Assembly: GCA_016208765.1 (NCBI GenBank)
Contig: JACQXK010000065.1
Location: 64,962-128,961 of the forward strand
DNA: 64,000 nt
Origin: Candidatus Omnitrophota bacterium
Lineage (GTDB): Bacteria > Omnitrophota > Gorgyraeia > Gygaellales > Profunditerraquicolaceae
Reading direction: 5' to 3'
In this document: in pieces, positions 42,834 through 59,356 of the stretch
Position numbering within the stretch: position 1 is the first letter of the stretch
How the letters are laid out: each line of letters starts with the position of its first letter
Translations under genes and position numbers: made by a program
Notes under the pieces: model-generated
The model's input: only the letters and a program-made list of their open reading frames with translations
Told to the model about the DNA's origin: nothing
Databases searched by the model: none

Positions 42834-43547
42834 ATGTATAAAAATAAAAAAATTCTAGCAGTTATTACGGCCCGGGGCGGGAGCAAGGGTATTCTTGGTA
42901 AGAATATAAAACCTTTATCAGGGAAGCCGCTTATTTACTGGACCCTGAGTGAAGCAAGAAAGAGTAAATATATTGATAAGATTATTGTTAGCACTGATGA
43001 TCCTGGTATCGCTGATATTTCAAGAAAACATGGAGCGGAAGTGCCTTTTTTGAGGCCCAAAAAACTTGCTCAGGATAAATCCAGCTCTATGGATGTTTTA
43101 TTTCATGCAATTGACTGGTTAAAGCAGAGAGGGTTGGTTTTTGATATTGTAGTGCTTTTGCAACCAACGTCTCCATTAAGGACCAAAACAGATATTGATG
43201 AGGCCTTAATGGCATTATTTAAAAGAAATGCTATGGCAATTGTATCTGTGGCAGAGGCATTTTATCCTCCGTTGTGGACAAACACTTTGCCTTCGGATGG
43301 AAATATGAAAAATTTCTTGCCAAAAGGGTTTGTTAATAAGAACCGTCAAAGCCTTCCAAAATATTACCAATTTAACGGAGCAATATATTTAGGGCTTATT
43401 GAATACATTAAGAAAAAGAGGTCTTTTTTAGGAGAAAGTACATATGCATATCTTATGCCAAAGGAGAGGTCAGTTGATATTGATGATACTATTGATTTTT
43501 TAATGGCAGAGATATTGTTAAAGAAGCAGAAAGATATTAGAAAATGA
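42834..43547 (+). CDS. neuA: acylneuraminate (nonulosonate) cytidylyltransferase, NeuA-like
   Basis: ILAVITARGGSKGILGKNI...GKPLIYWT...IVSTDD is the CMP-NeuAc synthetase signature. Confidence 0.8.
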   Translation: MYKNKKILAVITARGGSKGILGKNIKPLSGKPLIYWTLSEARKSKYIDKIIVSTDDPGIADISRKHGAEVPFLRPKKLAQDKSSSMDVLFHAIDWLKQRGLVFDIVVLLQPTSPLRTKTDIDEALMALFKRNAMAIVSVAEAFYPPLWTNTLPSDGNMKNFLPKGFVNKNRQSLPKYYQFNGAIYLGLIEYIKKKRSFLGESTYAYLMPKERSVDIDDTIDFLMAEILLKKQKDIRK

Positions 43548-45427
43548 GTAAAAAATTAATTTTTGTTGATAATATTGAGTTCATTAAAGACAATTCTTGC
43601 AGAATAGCTGAGATAATAAGAAATGAAAAAGCCTTAGTGTTGCCTTTATCGGATTTAGTCTTTTTGTATATGAAAAACAAGGGATTCAATTGTATTGATT
43701 TCCATGATTTTGAATATAAGGGCCTGTATGAAAATGTTTATTCTGTGGCAAGGGAATGGGGGACAGGTTGGTATAAACCAAGAAATAAAGACTTTTCTGA
43801 GGTAGATTCAGTTTCCCTGGGGACAATGATAGATTGGTTTATGATATATTTCTTTACTCATTTCTTGAGGATGCATCTTTTTTTAGGTGAGGTTATTAAG
43901 AACCTTAAGCCTAACGAAATAATATTCATTACAGCAAAAGAAGTGGATTATATGGAAGCGCCGTTAAAATTACGAAATGTTGACTGTAATTTATTGCAGC
44001 ATATGGTTAAAAGTATTGCAGGAACATTAAATCTTCACCTGTCTACCAAATTAATAAAGCTTACATCTCAAGAAAAATCTCAAAAACGCAAATTTAATTT
44101 TATCCGTCCAGTTTTTTACTATTTTAATGTTGTTTTATCAAGGTTGTTTAGTCTCTGCAACTTTATCTTACGTAAAAACAGAAAAATTATCTTTTACGAA
44201 GGTTTCCGGCACTTTTTTCCAGTAATGGCATCTAGTTTATTAAGAAATTTGGAGATAATCCATTTAGAAAAGGTAATTGGCTTATCTTTAATGCAGAAGT
44301 TGTATTCAAGAGGAATTAGAATAGATGTTTTAAATAAGAAAAATAGTCTCAATAAAATAAAAAAGCCTTGTTTTGATTTAATTAAAATTAAGGCAGAGCT
44401 TTCCGGTTATTTTATTTACAAGGGACAGGATTTTTTGGATTCTGTCTGGCCGAGGATTGAATATTTATTTAGATTTTTCCTGCCTGATTATGTTTATCCG
44501 GATTTGATAAACATAACGAAGTATATGCGGGCAAGCAATGCTAGTTGCTTAATCGTAGAAAATGATTCTACTTATGATGAGAAAATGCTTGTTATTGTTG
44601 CGAAAAAGTTTGGAGTTTATACGGTTGTAATACAAAATGGTGCGACTTGGATAGGTGAAGCTTTTAAAAGTAGAGAAATCTCTATTCATGATTTTTACCC
44701 TTTGATTGCAGATAAGTTTTTGGCTTATGGAGAATTGAATAAGAGTTGGTATAAAAATATGAATGTTGACCCAGAAAAAATTGTTGTTACTGGGGCTGCA
44801 AGGTTTGACGAGTATTATAAAACAAGAAATTCGTTTAAAATCTTAAAAAGAAAGAGCAATGCTGTCCTTGTCCTGTTAAATGATGTGACAGACCAGGACG
44901 TGGTAGTTTCAGAATATGATGTTACGGCCAAAATGTTTTATAAACATATAAATGAATTTATAAAAATAGCAAAAAATAGCCCAGACGTTAAATTTATTAT
45001 AAGGCCGCATCATAATGAGGGGTTCTGGAGAAGTATTTTTGAAGAAGAGATGCAAGGCTTGAATAATTTAGAAATTTCTCGTAAGGATACTTTGGTTCGG
45101 ATATTGCCTTTGGTGAATATAGTGGTTGGATATTATTCTACTGCTTTACTTGAAGCTTTAATCTTCAGGAAAATCGTTGTTAGTTTAGATACAGGAGAGT
45201 TTCTTAATCCATTTAAGCTATGGGATTATGATTTGTCAAAAAGGGTGGAGAACTTTACAGAATTAGAGGCGCAGATAAAGATTTATCTTTTTGATGAGCC
45301 GGAGCAAAGATTATTTATCAAGAAAATTGATGATAACTTGCGTTTGTTTAATTTTAATGATGACGGGAAAGCAGCAGAACGAATTGCGGGTTATTTAGGC
45401 AAAACTTTAATTAATAATTATGCATAG
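43544..45427 (+). CDS. hypothetical large protein, possible GT-B glycosyltransferase (TagF/KpsS/sialyltransferase-like)
   Basis: 627 aa. C-terminal region carries RPHHNEGFW followed about 40 aa later by a VVGYYSTALLEAL block, the layout of HP-motif GT-B enzymes. Confidence 0.3.
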   Translation: MSKKLIFVDNIEFIKDNSCRIAEIIRNEKALVLPLSDLVFLYMKNKGFNCIDFHDFEYKGLYENVYSVAREWGTGWYKPRNKDFSEVDSVSLGTMIDWFMIYFFTHFLRMHLFLGEVIKNLKPNEIIFITAKEVDYMEAPLKLRNVDCNLLQHMVKSIAGTLNLHLSTKLIKLTSQEKSQKRKFNFIRPVFYYFNVVLSRLFSLCNFILRKNRKIIFYEGFRHFFPVMASSLLRNLEIIHLEKVIGLSLMQKLYSRGIRIDVLNKKNSLNKIKKPCFDLIKIKAELSGYFIYKGQDFLDSVWPRIEYLFRFFLPDYVYPDLINITKYMRASNASCLIVENDSTYDEKMLVIVAKKFGVYTVVIQNGATWIGEAFKSREISIHDFYPLIADKFLAYGELNKSWYKNMNVDPEKIVVTGAARFDEYYKTRNSFKILKRKSNAVLVLLNDVTDQDVVVSEYDVTAKMFYKHINEFIKIAKNSPDVKFIIRPHHNEGFWRSIFEEEMQGLNNLEISRKDTLVRILPLVNIVVGYYSTALLEALIFRKIVVSLDTGEFLNPFKLWDYDLSKRVENFTELEAQIKIYLFDEPEQRLFIKKIDDNLRLFNFNDDGKAAERIAGYLGKTLINNYA

Positions 45428-48213: not shown

Positions 48214-48972
48214 ATGAATTTGAAAGAAAAGCTAAAGAATGGGCAAGTAAGTATTGGTTCTTGGTTAACTATTGGAGATGCTTCAGTAGCAGAAATAATG
48301 TCAAAATCTGGTTTTGACTGGTTGGCAGTGGATATGGAGCATTCAGCGATTACGCTTAAAGAGGCGCAAGATTTAATACGGATAATTGAATTGTGTGGAG
48401 TGGTTCCATTAGTGCGAGTTGGAGAAAATAACCCTAATTTGATAAAAAGAGTTATGGATGCCGGTGCGCATGGCGTAATTGTCCCAATGGTGAATAGCAA
48501 AGATGATGCTATCAAGGCGTTCAATTCTACAAAATACCCGCCTTTAGGAAAAAGGGGTGTAGGTCTGGCAAGAGCACAAAATTACGGTTTGGGTTTTGAG
48601 CGTTATAAGAAATGGGTAAATAAAGGCAGTATTGTAATTGTTCAAATTGAGCATATAGAAGCAGTAGAAAATCTGGAAGAGATATTTTCCGTTGATGGAC
48701 TTGATGGTTTTATAATCGGGCCATATGATCTTTCAGCTTCTTTGGGCACTCCGGGAGATTTTAAGAACAGTAAATTTGTCAGGGCAATTAATAGAATAAA
48801 AGAAGTTGCTAAAAAATATGAAATACCTGCTGGCTTGCACGTAATTGATCCAAGCGCTGTAAAATTAAATCATTCCATAAAGGAAGGTTATAAATTCATT
48901 GGGTTTAGTTTGGATGCGTTATTGTTAGGAACAAAATGTAAGCAGGAAATGGAAGCAATTAATTATAAATGA
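48214..48972 (+). CDS. HpcH/HpaI family class II (pyruvate) aldolase
   Basis: Strong family pattern GSWLTIG...GFDWLAVDMEHS...VRV...GVIVPMV...YPPLGKRGVG...VQIEH...DGFIIGPYDLSAS. Confidence 0.85.
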   Translation: MNLKEKLKNGQVSIGSWLTIGDASVAEIMSKSGFDWLAVDMEHSAITLKEAQDLIRIIELCGVVPLVRVGENNPNLIKRVMDAGAHGVIVPMVNSKDDAIKAFNSTKYPPLGKRGVGLARAQNYGLGFERYKKWVNKGSIVIVQIEHIEAVENLEEIFSVDGLDGFIIGPYDLSASLGTPGDFKNSKFVRAINRIKEVAKKYEIPAGLHVIDPSAVKLNHSIKEGYKFIGFSLDALLLGTKCKQEMEAINYK

Positions 48973-49460
48973 AATTATTAAAAGCAGTAACAAAATCATT
49001 TCTTAATTCACTAAGGCCGCTTGTTGAGCAAGCAGCAAGATTTTATGGGATTGAGGTTAGGAGGAGTTTTGTTGTGTATGGGCAAAATAATCTAGTTTTC
49101 GAAGAGGAGCAATCTTGTCTGGAAAGATTTGTACCGAAATCAACGTATTTCAACGTCAGGTCAGGAAATATTCATGTAGGCAAGAATACCATGTTTGGGG
49201 AGAATGTTATGGTTATTACTGGAAAACACATGGATGTTGCCGAGTCAGGAGAGAAAGGGTTGCCTCTTTACAGTGTTCCTACAGAAGGAAGGGACATTTC
49301 TATTGGAGAGAGTTGCTTTATAGGTAGTGGAGCAATTATTTTAGGTAAGGTTAATATTGGAGATTTTTCTGTTATTGGCGCAGGGGCAGTTGTTACAAAA
49401 GATGTGCCTGAACGCGTTTTTGTTGCCGGTACTCCGGCTAAGATCATAAAAAAATTATAG
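48969..49460 (+). CDS. hexapeptide-repeat (LbH) acetyltransferase
   Basis: C-terminal left-handed beta-helix repeats (IGESCFIGSGAIILGKVNIGDFSVIGAGAVV). Confidence 0.75.
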   Translation: MKLLKAVTKSFLNSLRPLVEQAARFYGIEVRRSFVVYGQNNLVFEEEQSCLERFVPKSTYFNVRSGNIHVGKNTMFGENVMVITGKHMDVAESGEKGLPLYSVPTEGRDISIGESCFIGSGAIILGKVNIGDFSVIGAGAVVTKDVPERVFVAGTPAKIIKKL

Positions 49461-49465
49461 AAAAT

Positions 49466-50986
49466 ATGGAAAACAAAGAATTTAAGGTTTTGTTGATTTA
49501 TCCTGCGCTTTTTATGCAAACTGGGTTGCCTTTAGGGGTATCCTCTTTGGTGGCGACGTTAAAGAAGAGGGGTATTGACTGTAAAGTATTTGATACAGTC
49601 TTCTATCAGGATTCCGGAGAGGTTGATGAAAACATTGAAAGGGCGGTAACATTGCATTCGGTAAAAGCGGTAGATTATAATTCAGTAGGAATGCTGCCCA
49701 ATAGCAGTTCTATGGAGGAAGATCTATCCCGAATTATGGCTGAATATAAACCGGATTTAGTCGGTTTAAGCGCCATAGAATGTATTTTTGAACGAGGGAT
49801 CAAATTAACTCGTTTGGCAAAGAAAATTAGCAACGTTCCAGTGATTGCCGGAGGAGTTTTTGCGACGCTTGCTCCAGATATTGTTATCCAGGAAAATTCA
49901 ATTGATTTTGTTTGCGTTGGAGAGGGGGAAGAGGTATTGGCGGACCTGTGCGAGCGTATAAAAAATAAGGAGAGTTATTTAGATGTAAGGGGTTTGTGGA
50001 TTAAAGATAGCGGGAAGATTCTTAAGAATAAGGCAATGCCATTGCAAACGCTTGATTCGGTTATTGAACCGGATTTCTTTGAATTTAACCCCAAGCTTTT
50101 TTACCGGCCTATGCAGGGGAATCTTTTTAAGACAATCCCAGTAGAATTTGCCCGTGGTTGCCCTTATCAGTGCACATATTGCGCAGAACCATCTTTGAGC
50201 AGGTTCTACAAAGCTTCTGGAGAGACGGGTTATTTTAGGACCAAGTCAATGAAAAGAGTTATTTCTGAAATTAAGAAAGGAATGGAGCTATATAAGCCAG
50301 AATTTTTCTATTTTGCTACCGAGACTTTTCTAGCGATGAGCGATGAAGCATTTGACGAATTTTATAATGGATATAAAAAAATTAAGCTTCCATTCTGGAT
50401 TCAAACCCGCATAGAGACTATTACTGATGAGCGGATTCAAAAGCTTAAAGAAGTGGGGCTCTTTTGGTTGACCATAGGAATAGAGCACGGTAATGAGGAT
50501 TTCCGGAAAAAATACCTGAAGCGGAATATGAAGAATGAAAGGATCTTTGAAGTAATGAAGATTCTTGATAGATGTGGCCAAGGAGTATCGTTAAATAGCA
50601 TTATTGGGTTTCCTTTTGAGACACGCGAGCTTATATTTGATACAATAATGCTTAATCGTAAACTATCCCAGATTAATAATCGTGTCAGATGTAATATTTC
50701 AATATTTACTCCTTTTAGAGGGTGTGAATTATATGATCTCTGTGTGTCTAACGGTCTTTTTGAGCCTGTCAAATACACGAACCATACAAATGTGAGTAAA
50801 GGAAGCCTGCTTAAATCAAAATTGCTCACGAATCAAGAGCTTAATGGGCTATTCAGGACATTTAATCTTTATGTGTATTTACCGGAAGAATATTTTGAGA
50901 GAATTAGATTAGCTCAGCAACCAACCGATGAAGGCAATAAAGAGTTTTTGTTTTTAAGTAGCAAGCTTAAAGAGTATATGTATTAA
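49466..50986 (+). CDS. B12-binding domain radical SAM enzyme
   Basis: B12-binding N-domain (KVLLIYPALF...) and CPYQCTYC (CxxxCxxC). Confidence 0.85.
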   Translation: MENKEFKVLLIYPALFMQTGLPLGVSSLVATLKKRGIDCKVFDTVFYQDSGEVDENIERAVTLHSVKAVDYNSVGMLPNSSSMEEDLSRIMAEYKPDLVGLSAIECIFERGIKLTRLAKKISNVPVIAGGVFATLAPDIVIQENSIDFVCVGEGEEVLADLCERIKNKESYLDVRGLWIKDSGKILKNKAMPLQTLDSVIEPDFFEFNPKLFYRPMQGNLFKTIPVEFARGCPYQCTYCAEPSLSRFYKASGETGYFRTKSMKRVISEIKKGMELYKPEFFYFATETFLAMSDEAFDEFYNGYKKIKLPFWIQTRIETITDERIQKLKEVGLFWLTIGIEHGNEDFRKKYLKRNMKNERIFEVMKILDRCGQGVSLNSIIGFPFETRELIFDTIMLNRKLSQINNRVRCNISIFTPFRGCELYDLCVSNGLFEPVKYTNHTNVSKGSLLKSKLLTNQELNGLFRTFNLYVYLPEEYFERIRLAQQPTDEGNKEFLFLSSKLKEYMY

Positions 50987-50998
50987 AGGATTCTGCAA

Positions 50999-52648
50999 AT
51001 GAAAATAAAACAAAAAAATGAGCTTAGAATTTTAATGGTTTATCCTAATTTAGCTATGATGTTAGTTCCCTCAATAGCTATCGGATTATTCACAAAAATT
51101 CTAAAAAGAGAAGGATATGCGTTGGATTTATTTGACACCACGCATTATGTTTCTGATGAGAATTCAAGCCCGCAAAATCGCGTCAAATATCTTCAGGCGC
51201 GCAATTTTAAGGAGAAAGAAGACTTAGGAGTAAAAATTAAGACCGATTTACTCGGTGACTTTAGAAAAAAAGTTTTAGAATTTCAGCCGGACTTACTGCT
51301 TATGTCTGTTGTAGAAGATGCTTTTTTGCAAGCAGTTAAAATGTTGGAGGTTATTCAAGATTTACAGATACCACATTTAATGGGTGGCGTATTTCCTACG
51401 GCTTCAGCCCAGCGTTGCATGGATTTCTCTGTTATAAGAGCAGTTGGCTTAGGAGAAGGGGAAAATACGGTTGTGGAATTTGCAGAGGCAATCCGGCTTA
51501 ACAAAAGCCTTGAGGATGTTTCTGGAATATGGTTTAAGGATAGCCAGGGCAATATTCACAAAAATCATCAAGCGCCACTTGTGAATTTAGATATGTGTCG
51601 TCCTGATTTTAGCCTTTTTGAAGAGGCCAGATTTTTCCGTCCGATGGGAGGAAGAATATTTAAAACTATCCCTGTTGAAACATATAGAGGTTGTCCTTAC
51701 GCATGTTCTTATTGTAATTCTCCTATGCAGAAGAATTTCGCTTCAAAATACGGATTGGGAAATTTTTTGCGGCGTAAAAGTATGCAAGCGCTTCATTCAG
51801 AAATTTCCGAGCTTAAAGAAATATTTAGCCCGGAATTTTTCTATTTTATTGATGATAGTTTTCTTGCGCGCCCCCAGGAAGAGATAAACGAATTCTGTGA
51901 AATGTACAGTAAATTTAAATTGCCGTTTTGGTTTAATACACGTCCGGAGAATTGTACTCTTGAAAACATGCAGCAAGTTAAGGATGCTGGGTGCTATAGG
52001 ATTTCATTCGGGATAGAGTGTGGAAATGAAGAATTTCGTAAGAAGATTCTAAACCGTAATGTCAGTAATGCCTACCTGATTGATAAATTCAAACTTATTG
52101 CTGAAAGCGGTATTTCTTTTAGCATTAATCTTATTATCGGTTTTCCTGGGGAGACCCGCGCTTTAGTTATGGACACAGTTGAATTTGTTCGTTCTATTTA
52201 TGGATATGACACATTGACTGTTAGCATGTTTACTCCTTATCATGGTACTGTGTTAAGGGATGTAGCTATAAAAAATGGTTGGCTTGATAATGGTTCTATT
52301 ACTAAACACACAACAGCGCAATCTATGCTTAATATGTCTGCGCCATATTTAAGTGTTGATGAATTAGACGGTTTAATGCGCGTGCTTCCTTTATACTGTT
52401 ATTTTCCAAAAGATGAGTGGAAAAATATCTTTCCTGCTGAAAAAAATGATGAAGAGGGTAACAGAGTTCTTGGATATTATGGAGACATTTATAAAGAAAA
52501 ATTCTTAAAGTTTACCCAAGAAGAAATGAAAGATTTCGTTGTGGATGGTGCAGCTGGATGCAGGGTTAACCCAAAGGATGCTTTTCGGATTAGTCCTTCT
52601 AGGCTGAGTTTAAATGAAATAGAGATGCTAACTTTGAAAGGAATATAA
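50999..52648 (+). CDS. B12-binding domain radical SAM enzyme (paralog of the preceding gene)
   Basis: Same architecture, CPYACSYC. Clear paralogy to 49466-50986. Confidence 0.85.
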   Translation: MKIKQKNELRILMVYPNLAMMLVPSIAIGLFTKILKREGYALDLFDTTHYVSDENSSPQNRVKYLQARNFKEKEDLGVKIKTDLLGDFRKKVLEFQPDLLLMSVVEDAFLQAVKMLEVIQDLQIPHLMGGVFPTASAQRCMDFSVIRAVGLGEGENTVVEFAEAIRLNKSLEDVSGIWFKDSQGNIHKNHQAPLVNLDMCRPDFSLFEEARFFRPMGGRIFKTIPVETYRGCPYACSYCNSPMQKNFASKYGLGNFLRRKSMQALHSEISELKEIFSPEFFYFIDDSFLARPQEEINEFCEMYSKFKLPFWFNTRPENCTLENMQQVKDAGCYRISFGIECGNEEFRKKILNRNVSNAYLIDKFKLIAESGISFSINLIIGFPGETRALVMDTVEFVRSIYGYDTLTVSMFTPYHGTVLRDVAIKNGWLDNGSITKHTTAQSMLNMSAPYLSVDELDGLMRVLPLYCYFPKDEWKNIFPAEKNDEEGNRVLGYYGDIYKEKFLKFTQEEMKDFVVDGAAGCRVNPKDAFRISPSRLSLNEIEMLTLKGI

Positions 52649-52649
52649 A

Positions 52650-53423
52650 ATGATTATTGGGATTATACCTGCGCGTATGTCCTCCAGCCGCTTCCCTGGA
52701 AAACCTTTGGCAAAAATACTCGGGATTCCCATGGTAGGACATGTGTATTTTAGAAGTAAAATGTGTAAAGCTCTTGACGAAGTTTATGTGGCTACTTGTG
52801 ATAAAGAAATATACGATTATATTTCTTCGGTAGGAGGCAAGGCAGTTATGACCTCGGATAAGCATCAAAGAGCTTCAGATAGAGCCGCTGAAGCAATGTT
52901 AAAAATTGAATTAGATACAGGAAAAAAGACTCAAATTGCAGTAATGATCCAGGGAGATGAGCCAATGCTTGTTCCTGAAATGATAACGAACGCGCTTAAG
53001 CCATTTTCAGAAAATAGCACGATTCAGGTTGTTAATCTCATGGCCGCCCTTTCTTCAAAAGAAGAGTGGAATGATCCTCACGAAATAAAAGTTGTTTGTG
53101 ATTTATCCGGTTTTGCTCTTTATTTTTCAAGAGAGCCGATACCGTCTTGTAAAAAGGACGGAATTAAAATAACGGCGTATAAACAGGTATGCATCATACC
53201 TTTTAAAAGAGATTTCTTGATTAAATTTAATGAACTCAAATCTACTCCTCTTGAACAGGTTGAGTCAGTTGATATGCTTAGGTTGCTGGAACATGGATAT
53301 AAAGTTAAGATGGTTTTCTCCGGGTTAAATACTTATAGTGTTGATACCTCTGATGATTTGAAGAAAGTAGAAAAACTAATTGAAAATGACGAGTTACTCA
53401 AGGCATATTTAAAATACAGATAA
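52650..53423 (+). CDS. CMP-ulosonic acid synthetase, KdsB-like cytidylyltransferase
   Basis: IIGIIPARMSSSRFPGKPL...GIPMVGHV is the KdsB/CMP-Kdo-synthetase N-terminal signature. 257 aa. Confidence 0.75.
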   Translation: MIIGIIPARMSSSRFPGKPLAKILGIPMVGHVYFRSKMCKALDEVYVATCDKEIYDYISSVGGKAVMTSDKHQRASDRAAEAMLKIELDTGKKTQIAVMIQGDEPMLVPEMITNALKPFSENSTIQVVNLMAALSSKEEWNDPHEIKVVCDLSGFALYFSREPIPSCKKDGIKITAYKQVCIIPFKRDFLIKFNELKSTPLEQVESVDMLRLLEHGYKVKMVFSGLNTYSVDTSDDLKKVEKLIENDELLKAYLKYR

Positions 53424-53436
53424 AGAGATAAAATTT

Positions 53437-54441
53437 ATGAAAGAAGAAGATATCAGAAAAAGGAAAGTTTTTAACAAGTATTTAAGTTTAGTGGCCGAGG
53501 ATGTAAAAAGCTATTTTATTCCTCAGGATTTTGCCAGGATTAATTGTCCGGCCTGCGGTAGTAGAAAATATGATTTTGAATTTAAGAAAATAGAGTTTGC
53601 GTATACATCTTGCAGGAATTGCGCTACGCTTTTTCTTAACCCGCGCCCGCCATTTGATATTTTGAAGAAGTTTTATTCACTTTCTCCGTCCACAAGTTTT
53701 TGGGTAAAAAAGTTTTTTGAGCCTGTTGCCCAGATAAGAAGAGAAAAGATCTTTAGGCCTCGAGCTGTGGCTATAAGCAAATTAATCAAAAAGAAGAAAT
53801 TATTAATTGCGGACATAGGAGCTGGTTTTGGTTTGTTTCTTGATGAACTTAAGAAAATAATGCCAGAAAATGAATATATTGCTATTGAGCCATCAACGGA
53901 AATGGCAGGCATTTGCGCCAGTAAAGGATTGGGGACAGAATGCTGTTGTCTTGAAGAGATGCAGGGCAGGGATGGTAGTTTTGATTTGTTGACTTCTTTT
54001 GAATTAGCGGAGCATTTATATGACCCGCAAGTATTCTTTGAGAAAGTTTATAGTTTGCTTAAGCCCGGAGGAATATTTTTGCTGACAACCTTGAATGGCA
54101 AAGGGTTTGATATACAATTGCTTTGGGAATCTTCAAAAAGTATTTCGCCTCCGCATCACTTAAACTTTTTTAACTTAGTTTCTATCCAGCTTTTGTTGCG
54201 TAAATTAGGATTTGAAATTATCAATATCTCTACTCCTGGAAAGTTAGATTGGGATATTGTAGAAGGAATGATTAAAAATGAAGGTGCTGAGGTTGGTAGG
54301 TTTTGGCATGATTTGGCCTATAATTCTAATGAGAAGATGAAACAGGAGTTTCAGGCATGGATTTCAGGGAATCAACTTAGTTCCCATATGCAAATAATTG
54401 TAAGAAGGCCTTTAATTAAAACCCGGAGACATAAGATATGA
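53437..54441 (+). CDS. class I SAM-dependent methyltransferase with N-terminal Cys4 zinc ribbon
   Basis: CPACGS...CRNCAT zinc ribbon, then DIGAGFGLFL (motif I) and LKPGGIFLLTT. Confidence 0.7.
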   Translation: MKEEDIRKRKVFNKYLSLVAEDVKSYFIPQDFARINCPACGSRKYDFEFKKIEFAYTSCRNCATLFLNPRPPFDILKKFYSLSPSTSFWVKKFFEPVAQIRREKIFRPRAVAISKLIKKKKLLIADIGAGFGLFLDELKKIMPENEYIAIEPSTEMAGICASKGLGTECCCLEEMQGRDGSFDLLTSFELAEHLYDPQVFFEKVYSLLKPGGIFLLTTLNGKGFDIQLLWESSKSISPPHHLNFFNLVSIQLLLRKLGFEIINISTPGKLDWDIVEGMIKNEGAEVGRFWHDLAYNSNEKMKQEFQAWISGNQLSSHMQIIVRRPLIKTRRHKI

Positions 54442-55367
54442 AAGTATTGATTACCACAGGCTCGTTCGCAGGATTTGATAAAAGACCCTTGGATATGTTA
54501 ACTGATAATGGGTATGAGGTGATAATGAATCCTTTTAAGCGCAAAATTACTAAAGACGAAGCATTGAAATTATATCAAGGTATTGATGGAGTTATAGCCG
54601 GTACAGAATTTATTGATAGCAAGGTTATGGGTTCTGCAGTAAATCTTAAGGTAATTTCCCGTTGTGGCGCAGGGTTAGATAATGTAGATTTAAGTTACGC
54701 AAAAGATAAAGGGATTAAGGTATTTAATACTCCGGATGCTGCAACTGATCCTGTAGCTGAATTAACACTTGGTTTAATTTTGTCTCTTTTGCGGCAGATA
54801 CCTTTTTCTGATCGCAGCCTACGTTTAGGGGTATGGGAAAAACAAATGGGCCGTTTGCTTGCTAAAAAGATAGTCGGTATTATTGGTTTTGGGCGCATTG
54901 GAAGAAGATTAGCAGAATTACTTAAGGGTTTTGGAGTAAAAATTGTTTATAACGACCCTTTTATGCAAAGTTTAGATAAAGAATATGCTACTTTTGAAGC
55001 CTTAAGCCTGACTGAGCTTTTAAAAAACTCTGACATTGTAACTTTACATTTGTCTTATTCAAAGGCTAATTCAAGTTTAATCGGTGAAAAAGAACTCGCG
55101 TTAATGAAAGAGACAGCTTTTTTGCTAAACATTTCTCGCGGAGGAATAATTGACGAAGAAGCTCTTTATGCTGCTTTGAAAACTAAGAAAATTTCTGGCG
55201 CTGCTTTGGATGTTTTTGAAAATGAACCTTATAACGGAAAGCTCAAAGAATTGGACAATGTTATTTTAACTCCACATGTCGGTTCATATGCTTTAGAGGC
55301 ACGTATTGAAATGGAGATAGCAGCAGCAAAGAATCTTATCTTAGGTTTAGAGGGAAAAGCGCTTTAA
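54438..55367 (+). CDS. D-isomer-specific 2-hydroxyacid dehydrogenase (phosphoglycerate dehydrogenase-like)
   Basis: GIIGFGRIGRRLAELL NAD-binding motif and catalytic-domain layout. Confidence 0.85.
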   Translation: MKVLITTGSFAGFDKRPLDMLTDNGYEVIMNPFKRKITKDEALKLYQGIDGVIAGTEFIDSKVMGSAVNLKVISRCGAGLDNVDLSYAKDKGIKVFNTPDAATDPVAELTLGLILSLLRQIPFSDRSLRLGVWEKQMGRLLAKKIVGIIGFGRIGRRLAELLKGFGVKIVYNDPFMQSLDKEYATFEALSLTELLKNSDIVTLHLSYSKANSSLIGEKELALMKETAFLLNISRGGIIDEEALYAALKTKKISGAALDVFENEPYNGKLKELDNVILTPHVGSYALEARIEMEIAAAKNLILGLEGKAL

Positions 55368-55368
55368 T

Positions 55369-56037
55369 ATGAAAGTAAAATATTTGTCTTATATCTTTGA
55401 TAAAAGTAACCCAATTTATAGAAATACTTGCGCTAGCCTTTTGATTAGGGCAAAAAAGTCAATTTCAAAAGGAGATTCTTGCAACGTGTTTAGATTCTCA
55501 ATGGAGAGCCATTGGGGCACTCACGTTGATGCTCCGGCGCATTTCTTTAATAAAGCAAAGAAAATTGCTGATTATAAGCCTGATTTTTGGTTATTTAAAA
55601 AACCTTGTGTGATTAATTTGCCGGTTTCAAGTGAAGAAGTGATAGAATTAAAGGATATTAAATCAAAGGTGAATAATGAACATGATTTGGTATTAATTCA
55701 GACTGGTTTTAGTAAATTTAGAGGCAGTAGAACTTATAGTTTTAATAACCCGGTAGTTGATCCTGAGGTTGGGCTTTGGCTGAGAACAAATAGGCCAAAG
55801 GTAAGGGCGGTTGGTTTTGATTTTATCTCAATTGGTTCTCGGCAAAAAAAAGAGATGGCCAAAATTGCCCACCGCGCGTTTTTAAATCCTAAGTCAAAAG
55901 GCAAGCCAATTTTAATAATAGAGGATATGGATCTTAGAGGAAACCTTTTGGGTTTAAAAGAAGTTTGGTTGGCGCCATTATTAGTTAAGGGAATTGATAG
56001 CGCCCCTTGTGTGGCGCTTGGAATATTAAGAGGATAA
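55369..56037 (+). CDS. cyclase-family (kynurenine formamidase-like) metal hydrolase
   Basis: HWGTHVDAPAHFF, the HxGTHxDxPxH motif of the putative cyclase family. Confidence 0.6.
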   Translation: MKVKYLSYIFDKSNPIYRNTCASLLIRAKKSISKGDSCNVFRFSMESHWGTHVDAPAHFFNKAKKIADYKPDFWLFKKPCVINLPVSSEEVIELKDIKSKVNNEHDLVLIQTGFSKFRGSRTYSFNNPVVDPEVGLWLRTNRPKVRAVGFDFISIGSRQKKEMAKIAHRAFLNPKSKGKPILIIEDMDLRGNLLGLKEVWLAPLLVKGIDSAPCVALGILRG

Positions 56038-56053
56038 TTACAAGGAGCTGGAA

Positions 56054-56962
56054 ATGGAAAAAGCTGTAGTTTTTGGAGGTTCAGGTTTTATCGGTAGTCA
56101 CGTTGCTGATAATCTTGCTGATAGGGGCTATAAGGTTAGTGTTTTTGATAAGCAAAAAAGCCCGTATTTATCCGGAGCTAAAGAGTTTGTTCAGGGGGAT
56201 ATTTTAAATAAGAAAGAAGTGGAGAAAACAGTAAAGGGCAGTGACATAATATACAACTTTGCAGGTGAGGCAGATATTGATAATGCATTAGTCAGCCCGT
56301 TAGATACAATCACTACAAATATAATCGGTAATACAAATATATTGGAAGCTTGCCGTAAACACTCGGTTAAGCGATTTGTTTTTGCCAGCACAGTATACGT
56401 GTACAGCAATTCCGGGTCATTTTACCGTTCAAGTAAGCAAGCTTGTGAATTAATAATTGAGGATTATCATAAACATTATGGATTTGATTTTACAATTTTA
56501 AGATACGGCACGCTTTATGGGCCGCGTGCAGACAGGCGCAACTGGCTGTATTCTGCGTTAAAAGACGCGATAGAAAAGAAATGTATCACAAGAAAGGGTG
56601 ATGGCGAGGAGATCCGCGAGTATGTTCATGTATATGATGCCGCTAATCTTAGCGTAGAAATATTAAAAGAAAAATATAAGAATCAATATGTGATGATTAC
56701 AGGTAACCAGCAGATACGAATAAAAGATTTGATGAAGATGGTCCAGGAAATTTTAGGCAAATCAGTCAAATTAAAGTTTATGAAATCAGATCAAGAGCAG
56801 CATTATGAGATAACGCCTTATAATTTTAGCCCTAAACTGGCAAAGAAGATAGTCGGAGACCATTATATAGACTTGGGGCAGGGAGTCCTTGATCTGATTA
56901 ATTTATTGTATGTAAATTTAAATCATAAAGGAGAGCGTGATATTAAAAAAAGTAATCTATGA
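56054..56962 (+). CDS. NAD-dependent epimerase/dehydratase (extended SDR)
   Basis: FGGSGFIGSHV Rossmann motif and YRSSK (YxxxK). Confidence 0.75.
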   Translation: MEKAVVFGGSGFIGSHVADNLADRGYKVSVFDKQKSPYLSGAKEFVQGDILNKKEVEKTVKGSDIIYNFAGEADIDNALVSPLDTITTNIIGNTNILEACRKHSVKRFVFASTVYVYSNSGSFYRSSKQACELIIEDYHKHYGFDFTILRYGTLYGPRADRRNWLYSALKDAIEKKCITRKGDGEEIREYVHVYDAANLSVEILKEKYKNQYVMITGNQQIRIKDLMKMVQEILGKSVKLKFMKSDQEQHYEITPYNFSPKLAKKIVGDHYIDLGQGVLDLINLLYVNLNHKGERDIKKSNL

Positions 56963-57597
56963 GAGACCTAAGCTTTTTAAAAGTAATTATTTTTGATTTT
57001 GACGGAGTTATTGCCGAGTCTTTGGATGTAAAGACTAAAGCTTTCAGGCAGCTTTTTAAAGATTATCCGGAAAAAGTTGATGCTATCGCAGAATTTCATC
57101 TTGAAAATGGAGGAATGTCAAGATTTGACAAATTCAGGTATATCTATAAGATTATTTTAAAAGAGGAGTTAGATAACGAAACTTTTTTAAGGCTCTGCCA
57201 GGATTTTAAAATGCTGGTAGTTGATGAAGTGGTTAATTCTGTGCTGGTTAAGGGGGTAAAGGAGTTTTTGGAGTTCTATAAAAAAGAGCTACCTATGTTC
57301 GTTGTCTCTGCAACACCGCAAGATGAAATAATTGAAATAGTAAAAAGAAAGAATCTTTTGGATTATTTTCATGGCATATATGGTTCTCCGGAAAAAAAGG
57401 AAAATTTAATCAGGCGCATTCTTAGCAATGGGTATCTTGCAAAACAAACACTTTTTATAGGCGATTCCAAGAACGATTATCAAGCAGCAGAGGAAACCGG
57501 AGTTTTGTTTGCGGCAAGGATTAGTAACGATAAATCTGAATGGTTAAGAAACGCAAACGCTATTTTTACTTTTAAAGGATTTGATGAGCTTAGTTAA
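56959..57597 (+). CDS. HAD-superfamily phosphatase
   Basis: IIFDFDGVIAES (DxDG motif I) and GDSKNDYQAA (motif IV). Confidence 0.8.
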   Translation: MRDLSFLKVIIFDFDGVIAESLDVKTKAFRQLFKDYPEKVDAIAEFHLENGGMSRFDKFRYIYKIILKEELDNETFLRLCQDFKMLVVDEVVNSVLVKGVKEFLEFYKKELPMFVVSATPQDEIIEIVKRKNLLDYFHGIYGSPEKKENLIRRILSNGYLAKQTLFIGDSKNDYQAAEETGVLFAARISNDKSEWLRNANAIFTFKGFDELS

Positions 57598-58384
57598 GAA
57601 CGATTCTTTAGAAACTATCAACCAGACGACCAAAGAAGCTTGGGTTGAGAATTGGCGAAGCATAGAAATTGAAAAAATATTAGAGATTTTTAATTATCCC
57701 AGAGTTAAAAAGATTATGGATATCATTATGCCATATCTTTTTAAAGAGGGCATTTGCCTTGAGGCGGGATGCGGGCTTGGCCCGTATCTTATTAAAATAA
57801 GCTCTCTGGGCTACAATATGGTTGGAATAGATTACCAAGTAGAATGTTTAAGAAAAATTAAGGAATTCCAGGATAAGCAAAAGGTGTTAACTGCGGATGT
57901 CCGTAGGACTCCCTTTCAGGACAATATTTTTAATACTTATCTATCTTTTGGAGTAATTGAACATTTTCCAGAAGGCCCTGTCGAGGCGTTAAAAGAGGCT
58001 TATAGAGTACTTAGGCCTAATGGCAAATTGCTTGTTTTTGTACCGTATTATAATATCCTAAAGCGATTAAAAGCGCCTTGGGAATTTTTAAAGTCAAATA
58101 AACTCTTGCGGGGCTTATTTGGTAAAAAGGAGAAAATGATTTATTATCAGCGGTATTTTAAAGCCAAAGAACTTGAGGATGAAATGAAAAAGGCTAATTT
58201 TGTTATTGATAAAACTATTCCCGTTGATCACATTTTTAGTTTAGTGGAATTCAGCAGTATTTTCCGTGATAGACACACCTACGACGGAGAGAATAAACTG
58301 GCTGTTTATTTAGGAAACTTTCTGGAGAAATTTTTTCCTTGGATGAGTGCTGGTTCGCTTCTTTTTGTCTGTCATAAAAGTTAA
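57584..58384 (+). CDS. class I SAM-dependent methyltransferase
   Basis: LEAGCGLGPYL (motif I) and LRPNGKLLVFVP. The ATG at 57584 is preferred over the TTG at 57581. Confidence 0.7.
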   Translation: MSLVKNDSLETINQTTKEAWVENWRSIEIEKILEIFNYPRVKKIMDIIMPYLFKEGICLEAGCGLGPYLIKISSLGYNMVGIDYQVECLRKIKEFQDKQKVLTADVRRTPFQDNIFNTYLSFGVIEHFPEGPVEALKEAYRVLRPNGKLLVFVPYYNILKRLKAPWEFLKSNKLLRGLFGKKEKMIYYQRYFKAKELEDEMKKANFVIDKTIPVDHIFSLVEFSSIFRDRHTYDGENKLAVYLGNFLEKFFPWMSAGSLLFVCHKS

Positions 58385-58405: not shown

Positions 58406-59356
58406 ATGAAATTAATTATACAAATTCCTTGTTACAATGAAGAAGGCTCGTTGCCGGTGGTAATTAGGGCTTTGCCCCGGAAGATAGAAGGTGTTGACAA
58501 GATTGAGATTTTAGTAATAAATGATGGCAGTGCCGATAATACTTCTAATGTGGCCAAAGGCCTTGGCGTTGAACATATCTTGGAGCTTCCTTATCATCGC
58601 GGTTTAGCTGAAACTTTTCGCGCAGGCCTTGAAGAGTCTTTGCGGTTAGGGGCTGATATTATTGTAAATACAGACGGAGATAATCAGTATCAGGCAGAAG
58701 ATATCTCTAAATTGGTTGAGCCGATTTTAAAGAAAAGGGCGGAAATTGTGATTGGGTGCAGGGATATATTTACAATTAAACATTTTTCGATTACAAAGAA
58801 AATCCTTCAGAATTTCGGAAGTTATATTGTTAGAAAATTCTCAAATACAAGCATTCCGGATACGACATCTGGCTTTCGCGCTTATTCAAGGGATGCTGCT
58901 TTAAGGATGAATGTGTTTTCTCGTTATACTTACACGCTTGAAACGATCATTCAGGCAGGCAGGAAAGAAATTCCTATTGCGTGCGTTAGTGTCAGGACAA
59001 ATGAAAAAATACGCGAATCAAGGCTGATTAAAAGCATTCCCTCATATATCAAAAGATCAATAGCAACAATTTTAAGGATTTATCTTATGTATGAGCCGAT
59101 GAGTTTTTTCGTCCGTCTCGGGTCTTTGTTTTTACTCGGAGCTTCTATGCTGGGAGTACGTTATTTATATTTCTTTGCTTTTGGGTCAAAACACGGCGGA
59201 CATATCCAGTCTCTCATTTTAGCTATAATTTTTTCTGTTTTAGGGATACAGCTTATTTTTATCGGTTTTTTAGCAGATATAATTGCTGCAAACAGAAAAC
59301 TTTCAGAAGAAATCTTATATAGGCAGAGAAAAGAGCACCTAAAACCTGTAAAATAG
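58406..59356 (+). CDS. membrane-anchored GT2 polyprenyl-phosphate glycosyltransferase (GtrB/ArnC-like)
   Basis: QIPCYNEE...VINDGSADNT GT-A core plus two C-terminal TM helices, the GtrB/ArnC architecture. Strong AAGGAGG SD. Confidence 0.8.
   Translation: MKLIIQIPCYNEEGSLPVVIRALPRKIEGVDKIEILVINDGSADNTSNVAKGLGVEHILELPYHRGLAETFRAGLEESLRLGADIIVNTDGDNQYQAEDISKLVEPILKKRAEIVIGCRDIFTIKHFSITKKILQNFGSYIVRKFSNTSIPDTTSGFRAYSRDAALRMNVFSRYTYTLETIIQAGRKEIPIACVSVRTNEKIRESRLIKSIPSYIKRSIATILRIYLMYEPMSFFVRLGSLFLLGASMLGVRYLYFFAFGSKHGGHIQSLILAIIFSVLGIQLIFIGFLADIIAANRKLSEEILYRQRKEHLKPVK

Follow-up and report, generated by a model that had tools for sequence, protein, structure and literature searches.

An aldolase-cytidylyltransferase gene pair with a possible role in making a CMP-activated 2-ulosonic acid in an Omnitrophota glycan locus

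Gene content of the operon

Which acid is activated by a KdsB-like cytidylyltransferase that shares its operon with an aldolase and has no KdsA-type synthase at its side? The question was raised by an operon (48214-58384, plus strand) in the window, i.e., the whole stretch of 64,000 nucleotides of Candidatus Omnitrophota DNA analyzed here. Its eleven genes lie on one strand and are tightly packed, with gaps of -4 to +17 bp; all eleven could be assigned to a family and have intact catalytic motifs.

The operon opens with an HpcH/HpaI-type class II (metal-dependent) 2-oxoacid aldolase (48214..48972; Pfam PF03328, E 2.9e-34), followed by a hexapeptide-repeat acyltransferase (48969..49460; Hexapep, E 5.4e-10) and two B12-binding radical-SAM enzymes of class B (49466..50986; B12-binding, E 3.8e-13, Radical_SAM, E 7.5e-20; and 50999..52648; Radical_SAM, E 1.6e-17, B12-binding, E 1.9e-06). 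The KdsB-like cytidylyltransferase (CTP_transf_3; 52650..53423; PF02348, E 3.4e-45) precedes a class I SAM methyltransferase with a Cys-rich N-terminal segment (53437..54441; Methyltransf_23, E 4.6e-18), a short PGDH-like D-2-hydroxyacid dehydrogenase (54438..55367; 2-Hacid_dh_C, E 2.6e-56) and a cyclase-family, kynurenine-formamidase-like metal hydrolase (55369..56037; PF04199, E 3.3e-21). A GalE-like extended SDR of the nucleotide-sugar epimerase/oxidoreductase type (56054..56962; Epimerase, E 3.2e-47), a HAD-IA phosphatase with a Gph/beta-PGM-like cap (56959..57597; HAD_2, E 4.5e-18) and a second class I SAM methyltransferase (57581..58384; Methyltransf_11, E 8.7e-18) complete it.

A NeuB, NeuC-like and NeuA-like set is encoded separately, 5-10 kb upstream of the operon (37933-43547). 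The first-pass annotation had regarded the KdsB-type enzyme as additional to NeuA. It had also noted that a second synthase of the KdsA or NeuB type is missing; in agreement, neither a KdsA (DAHP_synth_1) nor a second NeuB was detected among the window ORFs scanned against Pfam, the few unscanned ones being shorter than 200 aa and thus too short. All genes that it named (aldolase, KdsB-like enzyme, two methyltransferases, dehydrogenase, cyclase-family hydrolase, HAD) are present with Pfam support. However, the second methyltransferase lies just beyond its range of 48214-57597, and the acyltransferase, both radical-SAM enzymes and the SDR inside this range had been omitted.

Recurrence of the aldolase-cytidylyltransferase pair

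Homologues of the cytidylyltransferase at 60-75% identity were found in 293 genome loci. This sharply conserved clade extends over Omnitrophota, Nitrospirota, Planctomycetes, Leptospira, Firmicutes, Chloroflexota, CPR and several archaeal orders. Carriers available in culture include Syntrophomonas wolfei subsp. methylbutyratica, Leptospira gomenensis and Hydrosulfovibrio ferrireducens. For comparison of the gene neighborhoods, 81 independent loci were used, of which 66 were informative (at least 2.5 kb of upstream sequence), 42 well flanked and 37 fully flanked. In most of the 81 loci, orthologues of the operon's genes are found again with their order preserved; thus, the gene grouping is not due to chance.

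Aldolase orthologues (45-67% identity) occurred in 61 of the 81 loci. In 54 of the 66 informative loci an HpcH orthologue lay at most two genes upstream of the cytidylyltransferase on the same strand, and 33 of the 37 fully flanked loci possessed one. Overlaps were seen in fifteen adjacent pairs, and in ten of these the overlap was the typical 4 bases. Five minimal loci (L004, L008, L010, L049, L062) retained only these two genes of the set, and in a CPR genome (L022) the genes for HpcH, cytidylyltransferase, dehydrogenase, SDR, HAD and a 470-aa protein of unknown type form an isolated operon with opposite-strand genes on both sides. Glycan genes (Wzx, Wzy, glycosyltransferases, NeuB, ABC exporters) were found as neighbors.

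Dozens of the bacteria and archaea with the pair lack lipopolysaccharide; its probable function is therefore the synthesis and activation of an acidic sugar not yet described. With moderate confidence, the operon is interpreted as one extended version of a cassette that is widespread and horizontally mobile and that would synthesize and CMP-activate, independently of PEP, a 2-ulosonic acid that is neither Kdo nor of the NeuB type. The aldolase-based ulosonic-acid route already considered in the first-pass annotation is therefore favored by the comparative data, the pair being conserved and often translationally coupled across distant lineages. If true, this would be a CMP-sugar-acid route without the usual PEP-dependent synthase, yielding an undescribed acidic sugar; a published description of the module was not found in the literature.

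Alternatively, functions could be split, with the cytidylyltransferase activating a sugar acid from enzymes encoded elsewhere. About 11 of the 66 informative loci have no HpcH within 10 kb of the cytidylyltransferase, so that the aldolase is encoded elsewhere or is not obligatory, and in some of them a GT2-Zn-ADH fusion adjoins the dehydrogenase and cyclase genes instead. Furthermore, a D-2-hydroxyacid dehydrogenase is the enzyme expected for C2 reduction of an aldolase product (PMC7610986). However, gene adjacency and stop/start overlap in most loci, including the minimal two-gene loci, point to consecutive steps, and a split is judged rather unlikely. To our knowledge, the characterized PF02348 members activate 2-ulosonic acids, the chemical class that HpcH aldolases produce.

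A second alternative, likewise raised in the first-pass annotation, is that a (di-O-methyl)glyceroyl or similar acyl group derived from 3-phosphoglycerate decorates the nonulosonic acid made via the NeuB of the locus. In favor of this, the operon encodes a PGDH-like dehydrogenase and a HAD phosphatase together with two SAM methyltransferases and an acyltransferase, the NeuB/NeuC/NeuA set is nearby, and CMP-nonulosonic acids carrying 2,3-di-O-methylglyceroyl groups are known from Campylobacter jejuni (bioRxiv 10.64898/2026.04.20.719630). However, the aldolase and the cytidylyltransferase, the most tightly linked genes, would be left without a role, and conversion of 3-phosphoglycerate to glycerate requires no dehydrogenase. 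In addition, NeuB was found within 10 kb in only 12 of the 37 fully flanked loci, and the cassette stands alone in the CPR genome. A glyceroyl decoration is thus not favored and appears improbable.

The cytidylyltransferase pocket and the aldolase active site

Ordinary CMP-Kdo synthesis would assign the gene as kdsB or capsule-type kpsU, with Kdo supplied by a KdsA encoded elsewhere or by HpcH acting as Kdo aldolase on pyruvate and D-arabinose. With 302 bits, the protein exceeds the 255-bit cut-off of NCBIfam NF009905 (3-deoxy-manno-octulosonate cytidylyltransferase) and is thus filed under a CMP-Kdo synthetase subfamily. Its sequence identity with E. coli KdsB is 32%, and its best PDB match is KpsU (1gq9). 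Moreover, a PilQ secretin is encoded in the window of this diderm host, which may make LPS. However, at least 31 of the best 80 of the 293 loci are from archaea (11), CPR (6), Chloroflexota (9), Firmicutes (4) and Actinomycetota (1), which do not make lipid A. KdsA, KdsC and KdsD were absent among the annotated neighbors in the window and in the compared loci, and the KdsB-like gene shares its operon with tailoring genes for methyltransferases and radical-SAM enzymes.

The residues of the enzyme also differ from those of CMP-Kdo synthetases. Of 82 clade sequences, 81-82 retain the catalytic residues R10, K19, Q98, D100 and D235, but six near-invariant changes were observed in this set (H181Q, G183C, Y185I, G186P, E210D, Q211M). 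At four of these positions (H181, Y185, E210, Q211) the six solved KdsB/KpsU sequences in the alignment show no variation, whereas 77-81 of the 82 clade members carry Q, I, D and M, respectively. The C5-OH of Kdo, which is essential, is bound by Y185 and Q98, and 5-deoxy-Kdo is not accepted by E. coli KdsB; H181 is likewise mentioned (PMC12199768). Judged by alignment, the clade has lost Kdo-pocket residues, with the pocket assignment beyond Q98, Y185 and H181 being based on sequence conservation. With the pocket residues lost and the clade present in lineages without lipid A, CMP-Kdo synthesis, which the first-pass annotation had set against its own proposal, is considered very unlikely.

The aldolase did not reach any of the NCBIfam equivalog cut-offs (HpaI 179 vs. 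369, RhmA 161 vs. 441, GarL 156-158 vs. 393-407). Its best PDB match was YfaU (2vws, E 1.6e-42), and the metal and catalytic residues, which the first-pass annotation had marked for inspection, are kept: H43, R68, Q144, E146 and D172 align with YfaU H49, R74, Q151, E153 and D179. The known physiological roles of HpcH, HpaI, GarL and RhmA enzymes are catabolic (PMC7610986), but there is next to no chance that genes for cleavage of a 2-keto-3-deoxy sugar acid or an aromatic meta-cleavage product merely strayed into a glycan locus, this being effectively refuted by the synteny with cytidylyltransferase and glycosyltransferases and disfavored by the sub-cut-off scores and by the lack of hydratase, dehydratase, kinase, transporter and ring-cleavage genes among the neighbor families annotated in the 81 loci. 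The aldolase orthologues are located in glycan loci; their annotated neighbor families are of glycan type and include no aromatic-degradation genes, the neighborhood that the first-pass annotation had thought would speak for catabolism.

Residues H147, Y171 and H209 are invariant specifically in this aldolase subfamily. H209 occupies the position of YfaU L216, a bulky residue of the nucleophile pocket; replacing such residues broadens the nucleophile range, and HpcH-family enzymes use hydroxypyruvate as donor in vitro, with glyceraldehyde, erythrose or ribose as acceptors (PMC7610986). Given the invariant His, we consider hydroxypyruvate or 3-phosphohydroxypyruvate a likelier donor than pyruvate. 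On this single alignment position, the donor may be hydroxypyruvate, and the ulosonic acid may not be 3-deoxy. Thus, of the 2-keto-3-deoxy acid formed from pyruvate in the first-pass annotation, the aldolase route is retained, while the 3-deoxy character may not apply.

Proposed pathway and accessory genes

From gene content, residues, synteny and phyletic spread observed in the genomes, we infer the chemical steps, their order and the identity of the sugar as follows. First, the aldolase, in place of the PEP-dependent KdsA/NeuB synthases, would build the carbon chain by adding the Mg-stabilized enolate of a 2-oxoacid to an aldehyde of central metabolism, presumably an aldose or aldose phosphate. 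Second, the donor could be pyruvate or else (phospho)hydroxypyruvate, which the dehydrogenase and the HAD-IA phosphatase would provide starting from 3-phosphoglycerate; alternatively, the dehydrogenase may serve in redox tailoring. Third, the KdsB-like enzyme would join the cyclic hemiketal to CTP. The aldol step is reversible and would be driven forward by the release of PPi, in keeping with the frequently observed overlap between the aldolase and cytidylyltransferase genes. Fourth, the SDR would epimerize or oxidize a ring position, probably on the CMP-sugar. In this window, C-methylation by the two radical-SAM enzymes, O-methylation by the two SAM methyltransferases and acylation by the hexapeptide transferase could follow, with the cyclase-family hydrolase acting on the sugar or a precursor. 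Finally, the product would enter a Wzx/Wzy-type polysaccharide of the surrounding locus, beside the separate NeuB/NeuA-type nonulosonic acid.

For dehydrogenase, SDR, HAD and cyclase, the roles given here are guesses. The dehydrogenase (53-60 of the 81 loci) matches PGDH (250 bits) and glyoxylate reductase (227 bits) below the NCBIfam thresholds, with P. horikoshii PGDH as best PDB match (1wwk, E 3.3e-62). The SDR, best matched by the UDP-sugar 4-epimerases 6dnt, 4zrm and 6zl6, has orthologues in 57 of the 81 loci; in 44 of these the identity is 45% or more. The HAD (36-40 of the 81 loci; motifs DFDGV and GDSKND) passes HAD-SF-IA-v1, and HAD-IIIA gave a fragment match only; by NCBIfam it is therefore not KdsC-type, contrary to the role first suggested. 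The three genes co-occur downstream of the cytidylyltransferase, with the dehydrogenase in 24 (p = 0.0014) and the SDR in 23 of 25 HAD loci, and some loci lack the trio. A correlation was also seen between the pairwise distances of the trio and those of the cytidylyltransferase (Mantel r 0.34-0.37, p 0.0005).

Methyltransferases, radical-SAM enzymes, cyclase-family hydrolase and acyltransferase are optional in the cassette. The acyltransferase (homologues in 10-14 of the 81 loci) probably performs O-acetylation, its NCBIfam matches being sub-threshold hits to WbbJ/MAT/NeuD-type acetyltransferases. B12 radical-SAM genes occurred in 24 of the 81 loci. Enzyme 1 (CPYQCTYC; NCBIfam matches all sub-threshold) is a probable C-methyltransferase, and enzyme 2 (CPYACSYC) best matched HpnJ and PhpK, far below their cut-offs; both motifs have the form CxxxCxxC. 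The hydrolase carries HWGTHVDAPAH (motif HxGTHxDxPxH) and was present in 24-25 of the 81 loci, and all 14 occurrences in the well-flanked loci accompany the dehydrogenase. Orthologues of the first methyltransferase were found in 32-35 of the 81 loci, commonly at position +1 from the cytidylyltransferase. The second is a locus-specific accessory, with a near-full-length homologue in only one other locus and matches of 30-32% identity in the gene maps of L022 and L066.

No gene of the window could be singled out as the dedicated transferase for the product. Directly downstream of the operon, a GT2 glycosyltransferase (58406..59356, plus strand; Glycos_transf_2, E 2.4e-21) may belong to the module; this is uncertain, but in another Omnitrophota locus the cassette is likewise followed by an orthologue (63% identity). 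A GT-B-like protein of 627 aa is encoded after the NeuA-like gene (43544..45427, plus strand) and weakly matches Epimerase_2 (E 1.8e-4, residues 395-552). Proteins of about 600 aa (family c11) follow the cassette elsewhere; in 16 of 17 c11 loci their genes are at positions +2 to +7 relative to the cytidylyltransferase. They also show an Epimerase_2-type match (residues 398-573). The collinear alignment of the 627-aa protein with this family (21% identity over 304 aa, E 0.022) makes it a candidate distant relative, putatively of the CMP-sugar transferase class.

The operon and its KdsB-like cytidylyltransferase

The HpcH aldolase gene (48214-48972) opens a single operon of 11 genes, all on the + strand and separated by intergenic gaps of -4 to +17 bp. 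It is followed by genes for a hexapeptide acyltransferase (48969-49460), two B12-binding radical-SAM proteins (49466-50986 and 50999-52648), the KdsB-like cytidylyltransferase (52650-53423), a SAM methyltransferase (53437-54441), a PGDH-like D-2-hydroxyacid dehydrogenase (54438-55367), a cyclase-family hydrolase (55369-56037), a GalE-like SDR (56054-56962), a HAD phosphatase (56959-57597) and a second SAM methyltransferase (57581-58384). Catalytic motifs were readable in the translations of all 11 genes. The gene list of the first-pass annotation proved correct, except that the acyltransferase, the two radical-SAM genes and the SDR were missing from it. Its statement that neither a KdsA-type protein nor a second NeuB is present held among the window ORFs scanned, which include all those of 200 aa or longer.

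The HAD phosphatase, to which a KdsC-like role had been given, is of another type than KdsC. The protein satisfied the HAD-SF-IA-v1 model and is thus of the HAD-IA type, not the HAD-IIIA type of KdsC and NeuNAc-9-P phosphatase; the HAD-IIIA model covered only residues 8-44 and scored below its cut-off. The dehydrogenase matched P. horikoshii PGDH best, and the best matches of the SDR were UDP-sugar 4-epimerases. Both B12 radical-SAM proteins combine an N-terminal B12-binding domain with a radical-SAM core containing CxxxCxxC, which is the domain composition of class B methyltransferases and marks them as putative methylating enzymes. A third radical-SAM gene with a B12-binding domain (36385-37692) lies in the same glycan locus directly upstream of NeuB.

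The cytidylyltransferase has the PF02348 fold (Pfam E 3.4e-45), shares 32% identity with E. coli KdsB and has KpsU as its best solved relative. It exceeded the cut-offs of two NCBIfam subfamily models for CMP-Kdo synthetase (NF009905, 302 vs 255 bits; NF003952, 270 vs 193 bits) and remained below two equivalog cut-offs (TIGR00466, 147 vs 155 bits; NF003948, 177 vs 281 bits). With just 37 bits from the PseF model, it is of the KdsB type and not of the NeuA type.

The E. coli KdsB reference sequence was verified against PDB 1vh1/3k8d, and 82 members of the clade formed by the window enzyme and its close relatives were aligned to it. Residues R10, K19, Q98, D100 and D235 (E. coli numbering), which constitute the catalytic and metal-binding set (PMC3149649), were retained in 81-82 of the 82 members. 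Four other residues were replaced almost throughout: H181 by Q (81/82), Y185 by I (77/82), E210 by D (80/82) and Q211 by M (81/82). The window enzyme itself has Q, I, D and M at these positions, and G183 and G186 were replaced in the clade by C and P, respectively. All four residues are invariant in the six solved KdsB/KpsU sequences aligned (E. coli KdsB and the five best PDB matches). E. coli KdsB holds the Kdo C5 hydroxyl by Y185 and Q98 and does not turn over 5-deoxy-Kdo (PMC12199768); among Kdo-contact residues, the text of papers on this enzyme names Q98, Y185, H181, D100 and D235. H181, Y185, E210 and Q211 appear to lie in or near the Kdo site, and this putative Kdo-pocket set is lost in the clade. 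Two more distant paralogues from related loci (33-40% identity) also have Q181, D210 and M211; therefore, the non-Kdo signature marks a wider clade.

Protein matches to the cytidylyltransferase ran into the thousands, the best 120 being listed at 66-75% identity. A locus scan with one genome per species yielded 293 loci, the top 80 of which showed 60-71% identity. Carriers among these 80 include Hadarchaeia, Thermoplasmatales, Methanoregula, Methanoperedens, Syntrophomonas, Desulfotomaculaceae, Peptococcaceae, Actinomycetota, Chloroflexota (n = 9), CPR (n = 6), Omnitrophota, Nitrospirota, Planctomycetes, Bacteroidota and Leptospira; three carriers are cultured, namely Syntrophomonas wolfei subsp. 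methylbutyratica JCM 14075 (L006), Leptospira gomenensis (L021) and Hydrosulfovibrio ferrireducens (L077). Archaea, CPR, Chloroflexota, Firmicutes and Actinomycetota do not make lipid A, and at least 31 of the top 80 loci belong to lineages without it. Neither the window nor the annotated neighbours in related loci yielded a KdsA. Judged by its sequence, the cytidylyltransferase is no ordinary KdsB.

The HpcH aldolase and its partner genes

The aldolase matches PF03328 over its full length (Pfam E 2.9e-34, residues 15-234) and is most similar, among solved structures, to YfaU, HpaI and GarL. Its metal ligands and catalytic Arg/His are retained: H43, R68, Q144, E146 and D172 correspond to YfaU H49, R74, Q151, E153 and D179, and are kept in at least 93% of 62 orthologues. 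These orthologues share invariant residues of their own, namely H147 (YfaU S154), Y171 (A178) and H209 (L216). The pyruvate-specific nucleophile pocket is incomplete, with the Trp kept (W17, YfaU W23) and Leu216 replaced by the invariant His209. W23 and L216 of YfaU are bulky active-site residues, replacement of which broadens the range of nucleophiles accepted, and in other HpcH enzymes hydroxypyruvate can serve as the donor and glyceraldehyde, erythrose or ribose as the acceptor (PMC7610986). The L216 position holds a polar His, and the operon also encodes a PGDH-like dehydrogenase and a HAD-IA phosphatase of the small-molecule kind. This combination suggests a specific donor, and hydroxypyruvate or 3-phosphohydroxypyruvate derived from 3-phosphoglycerate is proposed on the basis of one alignment column and gene co-occurrence.

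The physiological roles known for the HpcH family are catabolic (PMC7610986), and a clustering of the aldolase with catabolic HpaI and HpcH enzymes had been considered at first pass. It was not observed: the aldolase scored 156-179 bits, below all cut-offs of the catabolic equivalog models for HpaI, RhmA/YfaU and GarL (369-441 bits). The annotated neighbours in the 81 loci compared belong to glycan-locus families, and no aromatic-degradation or sugar-acid catabolic genes were found among them. A catabolic HpcH enzyme was therefore rejected.

ORFs were called in 81 non-redundant loci carrying close cytidylyltransferase homologues and matched to the window proteins. An HpcH orthologue with 45-67% identity was present in 61 loci. 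In 54 of the 66 loci with at least 2.5 kb of upstream sequence, it lies on the same strand no more than two genes upstream of the cytidylyltransferase; 15 adjacent pairs overlap, ten by the typical 4 bases. Among the 37 fully flanked loci (at least 8 kb on either side), HpcH was found in 33, the dehydrogenase in 29, the SDR in 25 and the HAD in 22. In Mantel tests, the pairwise divergences of all four partners tracked those of the cytidylyltransferase (r 0.23-0.37, p <= 0.0035). Less frequent in the fully flanked loci were the cyclase (14), the MT23-type methyltransferase (12), B12 radical-SAM (11) and the hexapeptide transferase (7). The common order is HpcH, cytidylyltransferase, (methyltransferase), dehydrogenase, (cyclase), SDR, HAD. 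Dehydrogenase, SDR and HAD tend to occur as a trio: of the 25 HAD loci counted, 23 also have the SDR and 24 the dehydrogenase. Across all 81 loci, methyltransferases occur in 49 and B12 radical-SAM enzymes in 24. Five minimal loci (L004, L008, L010, L049 and L062) have only HpcH and the cytidylyltransferase of the window gene set, and in a Nealsonbacteria genome the cassette, i.e., this pair with its frequent partners, is an isolated operon with opposite-strand genes on either side.

HpcH was absent within 10 kb in 11 of 66 informative loci. A search for a replacement synthase in the HpcH-less loci revealed no KdsA or NeuB analogue; it yielded a GT2-Zn-ADH fusion, sulfotransferase-like proteins and spurious high-GC ORFs. 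The fusion of a GT2 domain with a Zn-alcohol dehydrogenase (about 625-633 aa; L039:8073-9974, L042:1234-3123 and L056:3611-5485) is placed between the dehydrogenase, accompanied by the cyclase in L039 and L056, and the cytidylyltransferase.

In a cassette variant on JGI contig U2_9MmaJ, SDR and HAD are replaced by a GFO/Idh/MocA oxidoreductase, a SIS_2 (GmhA-like) isomerase, a short-chain dehydrogenase and a DHQ-synthase-like protein (Pfam), which hints at a seven-carbon sugar-phosphate precursor in such genomes; L023, L029 and L077 contain ORFs that resemble these genes in size and order alone. A Nitrospirota locus (L002:1-1175) encodes a 673-aa fusion of HAD_2 and radical-SAM upstream of a second CTP_transf_3 gene.

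Proposed pathway and its relation to known systems

To our knowledge, the CMP-activated sugar acids described so far (Kdo, Kdn and the sialic, legionaminic and pseudaminic acids) all owe their carbon chain to a PEP-dependent synthase of the KdsA/NeuB type. As far as sequence comparison reaches, the pattern found here is strong and unexpected. In the proposed mechanism, the aldolase would join a 2-oxoacid donor to an aldose or aldose phosphate, yielding a 4-hydroxy- or 3,4-dihydroxy-2-oxoacid, and the HAD would dephosphorylate either the donor or the product. The cyclic hemiketal would be captured as a CMP-sugar by the KdsB-like enzyme, the release of PPi driving the reversible aldol step. For the GalE-like SDR, epimerisation or oxidation of the nucleotide-linked sugar is the probable role, while the methyltransferases and B12 radical-SAM enzymes would introduce O- and C-methyl groups. 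With two methyltransferases, two radical-SAM enzymes, an acyltransferase and a cyclase-family hydrolase, the window version is proposed to be unusually decorated.

In its specific form, the proposal is that the HpcH aldolase condenses hydroxypyruvate, formed from 3-phosphoglycerate by the PGDH-like and HAD-IA enzymes, with an aldose of central metabolism to a new 3-hydroxy-2-ulosonic acid, which the dedicated KdsB-like clade converts to a CMP-sugar that is then C-/O-methylated, acylated and incorporated into surface glycans. This PEP-independent route would have spread horizontally among Archaea, CPR and monoderm and diderm Bacteria. We regard it as possible rather than probable.

The nonulosonic acid pathways (NeuB/PseI/LegI with NeuA/PseF/LegF) resemble the cassette in that they also supply a CMP-activated acidic keto-sugar for surface glycans, in the type of locus and in the GT-B-like proteins of about 600 aa that follow the genes. 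They differ in using a NeuA-type instead of a KdsB-type cytidylyltransferase and a PEP-dependent synthase instead of an aldolase. In the window, a NeuB/NeuA set runs parallel to the cassette, and the sole NeuB is paired with its own NeuA-like gene. As an alternative to an aldolase-based ulosonic acid, the first-pass annotation had offered a glyceroyl or methyl-glyceroyl substituent, comparable to the di-O-methylglyceroyl groups on the pseudaminic and legionaminic acids of Campylobacter. A strict association with a NeuB-type pathway was not found: NeuB lies within 10 kb in just 12 of the 37 fully flanked loci, and most cassette loci have no nearby NeuB.

Ordinary Kdo synthesis (KdsD, KdsA, KdsC and KdsB/KpsU) follows the same logic, i.e., a 2-keto sugar acid is built, a phosphate is removed and the anomeric hydroxyl is activated with CTP by a PF02348 enzyme. 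However, PEP-dependent KdsA contrasts with the class II HpcH aldolase, the KdsC-type HAD-IIIA contrasts with HAD-IA, H181, Y185, E210 and Q211 are replaced in the cassette enzyme, and carriers without lipid A occur; this reading was considered and rejected. Because a PEP-dependent synthase is lacking, the phosphatase is not HAD-IIIA, the Kdo-pocket residues are lost and lipid A is absent from such carriers, the cassette is placed outside both the Kdo and the nonulosonic acid classes.

YfaU/RhmA, GarL and HpaI/HpcH share the fold, the metal and catalytic residues and the formation of 4-hydroxy-2-oxoacids with the cassette aldolase. They are catabolic (PMC7610986), whereas the cassette subfamily sits in biosynthetic glycan operons. 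PDB 6r62, a hydroxyketoacid aldolase from Sphingomonas wittichii, is a member of the same Pfam family (match E 2.6e-31). Enzymes of this fold convert hydroxypyruvate and glyceraldehyde or erythrose to 3,4-dihydroxy-2-oxoacids, as found by in-vitro screening and with no known physiological role, and the residue contacting the donor C3 in the S. wittichii enzyme is Phe (PMC7610986).

The B12 radical-SAM genes adjoin the cytidylyltransferase gene in the cassette. In the fosfomycin pathway, Fom3-type class B radical-SAM methylation acts on a cytidylylated substrate. By analogy, the arrangement suggests C-methylation on a CMP-linked intermediate. Unlike the fosfomycin pathway, the cassette includes no PEP mutase or other phosphonate gene. 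Phosphonate or phosphinate tailoring, considered since the cytidylyltransferase, the PGDH-like enzyme and the B12 radical-SAM enzymes recall the Fom, Php and Frb pathways, was rejected: PEP mutase is absent from the window and the annotated neighbours, HpcH is clearly an aldolase, and scores against the P-methylase models PhpK and Sden_1168 stayed far below cut-off. Campylobacter O-methyl-phosphoramidate chemistry was likewise rejected, the kinase/amidotransferase of that set being absent.

If the proposal is true, a third, unrecognised family of CMP-activated sugar acids exists beside Kdo and the nonulosonic acids. A module working in this way would represent a second enzymatic solution to chain-building and a biosynthetic role for HpcH-family aldolases. 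Thousands of "CMP-Kdo synthetase" annotations in archaea, CPR, Chloroflexota and Firmicutes would be misnamed, and an undescribed acidic sugar would be predicted on the surfaces of many uncultured lineages. In a full-text literature search of incomplete coverage, which makes an earlier description possible, no description of the HpcH-cytidylyltransferase pairing was found; a preprint on Kdo-modified flagellins concerns promiscuous Maf transferases in E. coli and has no bearing on the pairing. CMP-linked alpha-keto acids without an assignment, some of them with extended chains, were detected in environmental bacteria by untargeted CMP-sugar mass spectrometry (bioRxiv 10.64898/2026.04.20.719630); therefore, such products are detectable. 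The same preprint describes CMP-activated ulosonic acids with an extended (C10+) backbone of unknown genetic origin in Magnetospirillum, for which C-methylation by B12 radical-SAM enzymes is a candidate source.

Candidate transferases and the surrounding glycan locus

A protein of about 600 aa accompanies the cassette in 17 loci and is encoded downstream of the cytidylyltransferase in 16 of them. The window ORF 43544-45427 (627 aa) resembles it distantly, and the proteins of this size scanned (43544-45427 and L013:16486-18315) gave only weak GT-B similarity (Epimerase_2). Behind CMP-sugar genes, proteins of about 470-660 aa are a recurrent feature, also at L022:13209-14621 and L066:2492-4282, the latter two without a Pfam match. 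As such, they are candidate ulosonic-acid transferases of an uncharacterised family.

The host, an uncultured Omnitrophota bacterium, is a diderm, as shown by a type IV pilus secretin set at 1.5-5.8 kb of the window. From about 17 kb to 61.6 kb, all genes are on the + strand and nearly all serve surface-glycan synthesis. They include genes for an RmlA-like protein, several SDRs, a GDP-mannose dehydratase, a DegT aminotransferase, GT2 and GT4 glycosyltransferases, a Wzx flippase and a protein with an O-antigen-ligase/Wzy_C domain. In this glycan region, the G+C content decreases from about 0.40 to about 0.33-0.37. It is about 0.39-0.43 in 1-24000 and about 0.32-0.38 in 24000-64000, and the AT skew becomes negative at 24-36 kb; both changes are consistent with horizontal acquisition of the glycan region.

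The nonulosonic-acid block (36385-43547, + strand) encodes B12 radical-SAM, NeuB, NeuC-like, HisF-HisH fusion and NeuA-like proteins. The HisF-HisH fusion (479 aa) is followed by a 407-aa ORF without a Pfam match (together 40145-42822), homologues of which stand alongside NeuA/NeuB in five other loci (28-58% identity). Together, the fusion and this ORF resemble an amidotransferase set that would place an acetamidino group on the nonulosonic acid. Upstream of the block, large membrane proteins of the PMT_2/YfhO (GT-C) type (563, 744 and 550 aa) are encoded by three genes in a row at 30675-36255. Four ORFs of the glycan locus were Pfam-negative, i.e., 17257-18270 (337 aa), 27013-27432 (139 aa), 28549-29967 (472 aa) and 46895-48202 (435 aa); the last, next after Wzx, may be a polymerase. 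The glycan locus ends with the last glycosyltransferase, immediately after which come an RtcB RNA ligase and a thymidylate-kinase-like gene (61640-63756).
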